From NCBI GenBank assembly GCA_963835595.1, contig CAWIGL010000002.1:2534459-2598458 (forward strand): DNA of 64,000 nt. The letters are read 5' to 3'. A program made the translations under genes and the position numbers. The notes below the pieces were generated by a model. It searched no databases, was not told where the DNA came from, and worked only from the letters and a program-made list of their open reading frames with translations. Positions within the stretch are counted from its first letter, which is position 1; each line of letters starts with the position of its first letter. The stretch comes from an uncultured delta proteobacterium (lineage in GTDB: Bacteria; Desulfobacterota; Syntrophorhabdia; Syntrophorhabdales; WCHB1-27). Positions 33,028-35,230 of the stretch are shown in pieces.

Positions 33028-33094
33028 GTTTGACAAACTGCACTATGATACCGTGGCTGCACGTAACGCAGGATTGGCCTGCGCCTTCCGTCAA
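33028..33094 (-). promoter_or_regulatory. Conserved ~65-nt leader element shared with groES (copy 1, upstream of flotillin-like gene)
   Basis: Minus-strand TTGACGGAAGGCGCAGGCCAATCCTGCGTTACGTGCAGCCACGGTATCATAGTGCAGTTTGTCAAA is ~70% identical to the groES element, with an internal dyad and a TATCATAGT/CATTATAGT box ~35 nt before each ATG. Confidence 0.35.
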
Positions 33095-33107
33095 CCTCCC
33101 TATTCGA

Positions 33108-33136
33108 ATAAAGGGGGACCGCAGGGTCCCCCTTTG
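33108..33136 (-). terminator. groEL terminator hairpin AAAGGGGGACC-GCA-GGGTCCCCCTTT
   Basis: Perfect 11-bp stem ~50 nt downstream of the groEL stop, flanked by A/T. Confidence 0.45.
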
Positions 33137-33186
33137 ATTCGTTGTCTTCTATTCGTTGTCCCTCTTCTTCCTTTGGGACCTGCCGG

Positions 33187-34833
33187 TTAGTACATGCCCC
33201 CCATGCCGCCCATGTCTCCCATTCCGCCTCCCGGAGGCATCATAGGCCCGGCGTTTTTCTTCGGCCTCTCGGCGATCATCGCTTCCGTCGTTAGAAGCAG
33301 CGATGCTACGGAAGAAGCGTTCTGCAGCGCGGTGCGGGCGACCTTCGTCGGGTCGATGATACCCGCTTCCTGCATGTCTTCTACGTAGACCTCTTTGGCC
33401 GCGTCGAAACCAAAACCGCCCTTACCGTTCTTTATCTTTTCGATGACGATAGAGCCGTCATGGCCGGCATTGAGGGCGATCCAGCGCGTCGGCTCTTCGA
33501 GGGCCTTCTTCACGATCTGCACGCCGAACTGCCGCTCACCTTCGAGCTTCAGGGTGTTTAGCTTCTCGATAGCCCTGATAAAGGCAACGCCGCCGCCGGG
33601 GATAACGCCTTCCTCGACTGCCGCCTTCGTCGCATTGAGAGCGTCCTCAACACGGGCTTTCTTTTCTTTCATTTCCGTCTCGGTCGCGGCGCCCACGTTA
33701 ATAACCGCCACACCCCCCACCAGTTTTGCGAGCCTTTCCTGGAGCTTCTCGCGGTCATAGTCGGAAGTGGTCTCTTCGATCTGGGTTCTTATCTGTTTTA
33801 CCCGGCCCTCGATATCCTTCTTGTTGCCGGCGCCGTCAACGATAGTCGTATTGTCCTTATCGATGGTGATCCTCTTTGCGCTTCCGAGGTCTTTCACGCT
33901 GATGCTTTCGAGCTTGATGCCCAGTTCCTCGGATACGACCTGGCCGCCGGTGAGGATCGCAATGTCTTCGAGCATGGCCTTTCTCCTGTCGCCGAAGCCG
34001 GGCGCCTTGACTGCTGCGACCTTCAGGGTCCCCCTCAATTTATTCACCACGAGGGTTGCCAGGGCTTCGCCTTCCACGTCTTCCGATATGACCAAAAGGC
34101 TCTTACCCATCTTGGCGACCTGCTCCAGGACGGGCAGGAGGTCTTTCATATTGCTGATCTTTTTCTCGTTGATGAGAATGACCGGCTCTTCGAGGACTAC
34201 CTCCATCTTCTCGGGGTTGGTGACGAAGTAGGGGGAAATATAGCCCTTGTCGAACTGCATGCCCTCGACGATGTCCAGGGTGGTCTCCATGCTCTTGGCC
34301 TCTTCCACCGTGATGACCCCTTCTTTGCCGACCTTGCCCATGGCCTCGGCGATGATATTGCCGATGGTCTCGTCGTTATTTGCAGAGATCGTTCCAACCT
34401 GGGCGATCTCTTTCTCGTCCTTCGTCGGCTTGGAGAGCCTCTTCAGCTCCGCGACTACCACTTCAACCGCCTTCTCTATCCCCCGCTTCAGCTCCATGGG
34501 GTTATTCCCCGCAGCCACCAGCTTCGCCCCTTCCCTGTAAATGGCCTGGGCAAGCACCGTGGCTGTTGTGGTGCCGTCGCCGGCGATATCCGAGGTCTTG
34601 CTCGCTACTTCTTTGACCATCTGGGCGCCCATGTTCTCGAACTTGTCTTCCAGCTCGATCTCCTTGGCCACCGTCACACCGTCTTTCGTGATGTTCGGAG
34701 AGCCGAATGATTTGTCCAGTATGACGTTTCTCCCCCTGGGTCCCAAGGTGACTTTCACCGCGTCGGCAAGGGCGTTTACCCCATTGAGGAGCGACTCTCT
34801 CGCCTTCTGATCGTACAGAATATCTTTCGCCAT
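33187..34833 (-). CDS. groEL: Chaperonin GroEL (548 aa, GGM C-terminal tail)
   Basis: [37 protein letters not shown]...; C-terminal [13 protein letters not shown]. Confidence 0.95.
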
Positions 34834-34851
34834 GTTATCTCCTTTCTACTC

Positions 34852-35142
34852 TTAGTCTTCGATGATAGCGAGAATGTCATCCTCCCTCAGGATCAGGTGG
34901 TCCTCGCCGTCAATCTTGATATCCGTGCCCGAGTATTTGCCGAAGAGGATCTTATCGCCCACCTTTACTTCGGGGGTCACTCTATGTCCCTTCTCGGTCA
35001 TCTTGCCGGCCCCGACGGCAACCACGCGCCCTTCCTGGGGTTTCTCTTTGGCCGCATCGGGAATGATGATCCCACCCTTTGTCTTCTCCTCCTCTTCGAG
35101 CCTCTTGATGATGATTCTGTCCTGTAATGGTGTGAACTTCAT
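34852..35142 (-). CDS. groES: Co-chaperonin GroES (96 aa)
   Basis: [38 protein letters not shown]...; 18 nt upstream of groEL; AGGAAAGGAG RBS. Confidence 0.95.
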
Positions 35143-35164
35143 TGTTTCACGCTCCTTTCCTCAC

Positions 35165-35230
35165 TTTGAGGAATCTGACTATAATGCCGTGGTTGCATGT
35201 CGCGCGAGATCTGCCCGCGCCGTCTGTCAA
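35165..35230 (-). promoter_or_regulatory. Conserved ~65-nt leader element shared with the flotillin-like gene (copy 2, upstream of groES); no CIRCE/HrcA operator
   Basis: Minus-strand TTGACAGACGGCGCGGGCAGATCTCGCGCGACATGCAACCACGGCATTATAGTCAGATTCCTCAAA; see copy 1. Confidence 0.35.

Follow-up and report, generated by a model that had tools for sequence, protein, structure and literature searches.

The DNA analyzed here is a 64-kb stretch of contig CAWIGL010000002.1 from an uncultured delta proteobacterium; we refer to the whole stretch as the window. Its minus strand carries, in this order, groES, groEL, and a gene encoding a 673-aa SPFH/Band_7 membrane protein (Table 1), which the initial annotation had called flotillin-like; in the PDB, this protein matched prohibitin and QmcA only, both of them distantly. 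Two copies of a short repeat are co-oriented with these three genes: copy A forms the end of the groES 5' leader, and copy B precedes the SPFH gene. For this finding, the most fitting description is a promoter/leader cassette that was duplicated in one lineage, not a new σ-factor promoter or a regulon-wide operator. The best GroEL matches (88 to 96% identity) are named Syntrophorhabdaceae or Syntrophorhabdales, and the window comes from a Syntrophorhabdaceae-like lineage; the closest orthologues of the SPFH protein (93 to 97% identity) are found in metagenome-assembled genomes (MAGs) labeled "delta proteobacterium" and in peat or soil metagenomes.

A repeat search revealed one gapless direct repeat of 88 nt and 70% identity. 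The initial annotation had described elements of about 65 nt and about 70% identity upstream of the two genes; the similarity and its degree are real, but its true extent is longer, since it begins at GAATAG, 11 nt upstream of TTGAC, and extends 3' to the Shine-Dalgarno region. A 67-nt probe from copy A matched copy B at 49 of 67 positions, with the next best site on either strand of the 64 kb reaching 35 of 67, and a two-copy consensus pattern matched just copies A and B in the window (0.00 matches expected from shuffles). All of the boxes listed earlier, namely TTGACR, a GC-rich dyad of copy-specific sequence, CCACGG, and the CATTATAGT/TATCATAGT pair, could be located in both copies. TTGACR and YATAGT are 41 nt apart in A and B alike, which bears out the remark that their spacing is unfit for a simple σ70 promoter. 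The copies were also said to lie at the same distance from their start codons, which is roughly but not strictly so: from TTGAC to ATG we counted 88 nt in copy A and 83 nt in copy B, a difference of 5 nt, and from the last T of the ATAGT box to ATG 35 and 30 nt, respectively. Contig L001, 98.8% identical to the window, has both copies unchanged.

Table 1. Features of the groESL-SPFH region; coordinates are window positions unless a related locus (L number) is named.
Feature	Position	Strand	Description and basis
groES	34852..35142	-	96 aa; open reading frame; Cpn10 Pfam match on the identical gene in L001
groEL	33187..34833	-	548 aa; open reading frame and protein matches
SPFH/Band_7 membrane protein gene	30990..33011	-	673 aa; Pfam Band_7, E = 6.5e-17
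groEL intrinsic terminator	33109..33136	-	GC-rich hairpin followed by TTTATT; terminator scan and reading of the sequence
Copy A	35154..35241	-	3'-proximal stretch of the groES 5' leader (GAATAG through Shine-Dalgarno region); 88-nt repeat
Copy B	33018..33105	-	Between the groEL terminator and the start of the SPFH gene; identical in L001
TTGACA box, copy A	35225..35230	-	41 nt from TATAGT; TTGGCA in L089; read from the sequence
TTGACG box, copy B	33089..33094	-	Read from the sequence
Dyad/hairpin, copy A	35202..35220	-	GCGCGGG-CAGAT-CTCGCGC; RNA fold and pair counts
Dyad/hairpin, copy B	33065..33085	-	GGCGCAGG-CCAAT-CCTGCGTT (as RNA, GGCGCAGG-CCAAU-CCUGCGUU); RNA fold and pair counts
CCACGG and CATTATAGT, copy A	35178..35192	-	CCACGG at 35192-35187, CATTATAGT at 35186-35178; candidate -35-less promoter
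CCACGG and TATCATAGT, copy B	33042..33056	-	CCACGG at 33056-33051, TATCATAGT at 33050-33042; candidate SPFH gene promoter
Distal groES module	35374..35514	-	TTGCGC 35508-35503, 17-nt spacer, TATACT 35485-35480, hairpin ~35457-35433, AT-rich box CTTTTATTATCAATATCT 35416-35399
Distal module in relatives	L083 3430-3571; L085 3511-3651; L169 3331-3466; L170 2321-2456; L171 49-170; L089 1-102		

Among the searches for relatives, a contig search with the window's own GroES returned the same strain alone; a genome-contig scan with the SPFH protein gave 80 loci, mostly from Acidobacteriota, among which the SPFH gene is widely shared and the element is absent; and a metagenome scan with GroES gave a further 80 loci and one new copy of the element, in locus L089. 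In all of the fetched loci (1.46 Mb), other copies of the element occurred solely on same-strain contigs and at the L089 groES site. The subclade considered below has seven members (the window, L089, L083/84, L085, L169, L170, and L171), whose GroEL proteins are 92 to 97% identical to that of the window.

Copy B is a paralogue of the last ~90 to 100 nt of the groES leader, and it arose when the SPFH gene was inserted behind groEL. We conclude this because the element of L089 is found only at groES, because the SPFH gene lies elsewhere in relatives, and because copy B abuts the groEL terminator, starting three bases downstream of it. L089 (GroES 90% and GroEL 95% identical to those of the window) has a single copy upstream of groES (L089 229-303; nhmmer E value, 1.2e-10); its groEL ends in the same terminator, which no SPFH gene follows. 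SPFH orthologues with 93 to 97% identity lie beside MtmB/corrinoid genes in L082 and L088 and in other surroundings in L002 and L003, in no case at groEL. Their upstream region is a different one, of ~170 nt, with its own promoter (TGGTATAAT in L082, CGGTATAGT in L002), and the element profile found no match in these native regions. Over a 71-nt alignment, copies A and B share 51 positions (72%), copy B and the L089 copy share 50 (70%), and copy A and the L089 copy share 44 (62%). Since copy B is as similar to the L089 copy as to copy A, the duplication is about as old as the split between the lineages of the window and L089.

A separate likeness concerns the 5' box of the element (GAATAGRGAGRTTGACRGAMGG), which the native SPFH promoter region resembles (GATAGAGAGAGTGAGCGGAAAG-TGGTATAAT; L082 796-826, L088 1084-1114, and L002 about 5850). 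For the box ATAGRGAGRTTGAC and the native promoter ATAGAGAGAGTGAG of L082 and L088, we obtained a P value of about 0.01, which is post hoc and concerns purine-rich sequence, and the profile search does not detect the match; we regard the likeness as suggestive.

We favor, with a probability of about 0.5, the reading that the duplicated piece is a small expression cassette consisting of a proximal promoter without a −35 box, a short untranslated region, and a Shine-Dalgarno site, where promoter activity is what we infer from the boxes. Its −10 region would be CGG followed by TATCAT (copy B), CATTAT (copy A), or TAGCAT (L089), overlapping YATAGT. The candidate start site is the conserved CAG 5 to 7 nt downstream of the −10 box, from which an untranslated region of ~25 to 30 nt would lead to the Shine-Dalgarno site. 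For groES, the cassette would add a second, proximal promoter inside a leader of ~330 nt that is transcribed from the distal promoter TTGCGC-N17-TATACT (35508-35480); at the SPFH gene, copy B would be the sole promoter, replacing the native one that was lost. The TTGAC box and the GC dyad would then be inherited passengers, at most lineage-specific modulators.

Several features of the three copies point to such a promoter. TATCAT of copy B, which overlaps CATAGT, matches TATAAT at five of six positions and is the only promoter-like feature in that copy; the best −10 match sits in the copy that has no other promoter upstream. Its equivalents are TAGCAT/CATAGT in L089 and CATTAT/TATAGT in copy A, and all three hexamers (TATCAT, CATTAT, and TAGCAT) retain the critical A2 and T6. 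The longest block that is invariant among copy A, copy B, and L089 is CCACGG.A..ATAGT, and the native SPFH promoters of relatives share the form YGG-TATNNT with the −10 region of copy B. Because the native promoter has been lost and a strong terminator lies upstream, the SPFH gene needs either its own promoter or read-through. As for groES, copy A lies within a leader, because a canonical promoter is conserved 330 nt upstream in all seven clade members. On this reading, the −10-like box would fire and would give the SPFH gene chaperonin-like regulation.

Other observations weigh against a promoter at this site. No −35 box is recognizable in the element, and in place of the TGN of an extended −10 promoter all three copies have CGG, with the G at −14 but without the T at −15. 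The more diverged groES leaders (L171, L170, and L083) do not keep the −10-like box, and the opposite strand reads as well or better, with TATAAT at 35180-35185 in copy A and TATGAT at 33044-33049 in copy B, both on the plus strand. We estimate from the alignment that chance alone could give such invariant runs among three sequences. Element identities of 62 to 72% compare with 68% at fourfold synonymous groEL sites (window versus L089); because they are no higher, the element is not demonstrably under selection. Finally, the SPFH gene could be expressed without any promoter of its own, via read-through of the terminator.

Two further candidates in the element were tried and rejected. One is an antisense small RNA that would start at the plus-strand TATGAT (33044-33049) and end ~60 nt further on in the groEL terminator, which is bidirectional; no equivalent terminator accompanies copy A. 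The other is a leader peptide, prompted by an aligned start codon followed by CAA/CAG/GAA CCA CGG in the three copies; it has no Shine-Dalgarno site, and in L089 a stop follows after four codons. The open reading frame (ORF) from the aligned start codon comprises 19 codons in copy A (35198..35139), where its stop overlaps the groES ATG (ATGA); in copy B (33062..33009) it is in frame with the SPFH gene, and in L089 it lies at about 262-276. Since it has no Shine-Dalgarno site, this ORF is probably not translated.

The element could instead act as RNA, that is, as a structured 5' leader that controls stability, processing, or translation of the groES mRNA and, at the SPFH gene, acts on transcripts reading through the groEL terminator; we consider this possible but somewhat unlikely. 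It would comprise three hairpins: the GC dyad, a stem with YAUAGU as its 3' arm and CAACCACGG within its loop, and a small stem before the Shine-Dalgarno site. A conserved promoter certainly precedes the groES copy, which should hence be part of the transcript; copy B lies behind a terminator, and unless a promoter is close by, few transcripts would include it. The evidence from folding and covariation, which the initial annotation had named as a check, is weak. RNAalifold found the three hairpins shared by the three copies, with 88.9% of cells paired (33 to 56% in slid controls) and four double-changed pairs, but the covariation score, obtained from three sequences with a structure derived from the same sequences, was reached by 21 of 500 shuffles; across the observed measures, the number was 21 to 57 of 500. 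Every difference between the dyads of copies A and B, which comprise one compensatory change from G:C to A:U and otherwise G:U-compatible changes, keeps pairing if G:U is allowed, yet pairing survives automatically in most of the "one-sided" changes, since these are transitions facing G or U. In L089, three of the seven dyad pairs are broken, and the dyad proposed earlier does not hold up as a conserved feature. The copy A leader folds better than its shuffles (z = −3.1), but copy B does not (z = −0.28), and the conserved CAACC.CGG lies in differing structural contexts in L170 and L083, as judged partly by reading the sequences. At gathering thresholds, Rfam found one tRNA alone in the window; with E values up to 10, the region 32900-35650 gave no relevant family match, ROSE and FourU thermometers included. 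We judge it unlikely, too, that the rearrangement which inserted the SPFH gene left the repeat behind as a decaying remnant (the groESL 5' region could, for example, have been duplicated in tandem and then trimmed), with no present regulatory role except that of its Shine-Dalgarno site. Such a relic would agree with identities no higher than those at synonymous sites, with the lack of additional copies anywhere searched, and with the heavily rearranged groESL neighborhoods of the clade. It leaves expression of the SPFH gene unexplained, however, given the lost native promoter and the terminator upstream: the SPFH protein is under purifying selection (93 to 97% identity to its orthologues) and must therefore be expressed. 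Moreover, the three copies align over 71 nt without an indel, in contrast to the middle part of that leader, which is scrambled (~50% identity, with gaps).

In its strongest version, the explanation of the initial annotation would be that TTGAC and TATAGT form an unusually spaced promoter for an alternative σ factor, or that the dyad is the operator of a heat-shock regulator that took over from HrcA; in either case, groESL and the SPFH gene would belong to one regulon. The element is indeed common to both genes, and the HrcA operator (CIRCE) is missing in the window and in the whole subclade, although a variant of it is present at groES in the next relatives (see below). We nonetheless find this explanation highly improbable. 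TTGAC is TTGGC in the L089 groES copy, so that neither a −35 box nor a conserved operator is maintained; no two copies have the same dyad sequence, and that of L089 is degenerate; and the closest groES relatives, L083 and L085, lack the whole 5' half of the element. The motif search for a regulon yielded no further sites in the 64-kb window or the 1.46 Mb of related loci, and the window has no other heat-shock genes. L170 (E = 0.19) and L171 (E = 2.2) have weak homologues at the orthologous site, each nonsignificant, which keep GGTGGCGGAAGG and GCAACC.CGG but not ATAGT. The 41-nt spacing fits no known σ factor. TTGAC was rejected as a σ70 −35 box, for which the spacing would be 16 to 18 nt, and promoter scans report nothing in the element; a σ70 promoter with a cruciform-shortened spacer was rejected as well, since the 19- to 21-nt hairpins leave 20 to 22 nt rather than 17. 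The delta-proteobacterial σ32 (RpoH) consensus, CTTGAAA-N11-16-CCCCAT (PMC545781), has no match with up to four mismatches on the coding strand of either element. Allowing up to two mismatches, the element likewise has no match to σ54 (TGGCAC-N5-TTGC); the spacing in its GGC..AT...GCG block is 8 nt, not 10. HAIR/HspR (CTTGAGT-N7-ACTCAAG), CtsR (tandem GGTCAAA), and σE (GGAACTT-N15-17-TCAAA) gave only noise with four to five mismatches, outside the conserved boxes. The element is lineage-specific, weakly constrained, and mechanistically ordinary.

The absence of CIRCE from groES, reported earlier, was confirmed. With up to three mismatches, TTAGCACTC-N9-GAGTGCTAA has no match in the 64-kb window, and with up to seven it has none in the two upstream regions; the same scan succeeds in 30 other groES loci. 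The CIRCE operator at groES is otherwise near-universal. It is missing in all seven subclade members, and the next relatives (GroES 73 to 81% identical) have TTGACA-N17-TATATT with the CIRCE variant TTAGCAATC-N9-GATTGCTAA directly after it. Because these relatives keep the arrangement of promoter plus CIRCE, the missing operator reflects a replacement at the level of the clade. The variant takes the place of the canonical TTAGCACTC-N9-GAGTGCTAA in the Syntrophorhabdaceae-like loci L090-L103 and L086/L087, about 25 to 60 nt upstream of groES.

What replaces the usual promoter-plus-CIRCE arrangement in the subclade is the distal groES module. This conserved control region lies outside the element and ~230 nt further upstream. 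nhmmer detected it upstream of groES in every clade member, with promoters of the form TTGCCA/TTGTCA/TTGCGC-N17-TATAYT (TTGCNN-N17-TATAYT), a hairpin GGAGAC...GTCTCC (GGAGACAATAATCCGGATTYGTCTCC), and an AT-rich box CTTTATTATCAATATCT. The module is 84 to 88% identical among L083, L085, L169, and L089; since this exceeds the 53 to 63% identity at synonymous sites, the module is under clear purifying selection. Rfam has no match to it. Clade members differ in the length of the stretch between module and Shine-Dalgarno site (about 45 to about 285 nt); that of the window has ~230 nt, with the element as its 3' end. A second, weak match to the module in the window, at 10002..9936, was rejected as due to chance: it falls, in reverse orientation, on the Shine-Dalgarno region of a plus-strand gene. 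On the plus strand, an 80-aa ORF with a GTG start and a strong AAGGAGG site (35444-35686) overlaps both the distal groES promoter and the 3' end of an acetyltransferase-like gene. It is called as a gene in L001, L172, and L173, probably spuriously, since L083 has an interruption in this frame.

Chaperonin genes and SPFH genes also meet elsewhere in the clade. In L083 (and likewise L084), a second copy of the distal module, spanning its −10 box through the AT box, precedes by 63 nt a gene, unrelated to the window's SPFH gene, for a 249-aa Band_7 protein (module copy at L083 8581-8691, minus strand; gene at 7768-8517); this copy is 79 to 80% identical, with an nhmmer E value of 7e-17. In L170 (829-2919), groES is directly preceded on its strand by two genes, one for a DksA/TraR zinc-finger protein and one for a third SPFH paralogue (337 aa); the latter has its own promoter, TTGACA-N17-TACAAT. 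The three SPFH proteins (window, L083, and L170) are mutually only 20 to 23% identical. Two independent duplications of different groES control pieces before SPFH genes argue that both pieces carry expression signals and that linkage of SPFH genes with the chaperonin would be advantageous in this clade. The coregulation of the two genes proposed in the initial annotation thus gains indirect support from the L083 duplication and the L170 gene order, but not in the form of a shared σ or operator regulon. A bolder possibility, which we hold to be quite unlikely, is that the subclade replaced HrcA/CIRCE with a new leader control system composed of the distal module and the proximal element, working through an unknown factor or RNA mechanism, with a regulon that repeatedly recruited SPFH genes; the proximal element would then be a functional recognition unit and not a mere promoter copy.

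The arrangement can be set beside several known systems. The groE operon of Escherichia coli has tandem promoters, σ32 plus σ70. The groES leader of the window would be similar in having a conserved distal promoter and a candidate proximal promoter within the leader, but neither candidate matches the σ32 promoter of delta proteobacteria, and the clade does not conserve the proximal one, which has no −35 box. With HrcA/CIRCE control, the element shares the gene and the class of promoter-proximal position; unlike CIRCE, its dyads are short, GC-rich, and different between copies. It resembles promoter capture in that a ~90-nt segment with a ribosome-binding region was duplicated before an inserted gene whose native promoter is lost, although here no mobile-element or target-site signature was seen at the duplication borders. 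RNA thermometers such as ROSE and FourU likewise place hairpins of the 5' untranslated region near the Shine-Dalgarno site of a heat-shock gene; the element, however, has no Rfam match, and its predicted folds leave the Shine-Dalgarno site unsequestered (an anti-Shine-Dalgarno-like UUCCU occurs in copy A and L089, not in copy B).

SPFH genes belong to stress regulons in some other bacteria: hfq-hflXKC of E. coli has heat-shock promoters, and flotillin operons of Bacillus subtilis are under σW control. Here, SPFH genes would likewise be tied to the regulation of protein quality control, with three different paralogues at groESL in three clade members; in contrast to those systems, the link would consist of copied groES control pieces that carry no known σ consensus. 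If the expression-cassette reading is true, the locus offers a clean case from nature of a regulatory change made by copying, in which a relocated SPFH gene acquired a promoter-proximal piece of the chaperonin operon; the parallel duplication in the sister lineage, of another piece and before another SPFH gene, would point to a selective advantage of expressing SPFH proteins and GroESL together in these anaerobes. The analysis also flags a whole subclade in which CIRCE gave way to a long leader with a strongly conserved module of ~100 nt. This distal module, rather than the element that was flagged initially, is the more promising target in a search for a new heat-shock control element.

The 673-aa SPFH protein itself has homologues of 65 to 88% identity (L004-L081) in MAGs of Acidobacteriota (Terracidiphilus), Actinomycetota, Armatimonadota, Spirochaetota, and Planctomycetota; such unusually high conservation across phyla suggests horizontal spread.

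Elsewhere in the window, on the plus strand, a giant GH94/glycoamylase gene (cyclic beta-1,2-glucan synthase-like) occupies 22002-29144 as a single ORF of 2380 aa. It is split into several gene calls in L001 (14210-19669), encodes 2875 to 2930 aa in relatives, and adjoins groESL in L083 and L085. Two paralogous plus-strand genes of ~900 aa (54-2723 and 7098-9908) combine CoA-binding, succinyl-CoA-ligase-like, ATP-grasp, and C-terminal GNAT domains, the architecture of Pat-type protein acetyltransferases. In a third GNAT fusion (16847-18736), the partner is an acetyl-CoA hydrolase/transferase.

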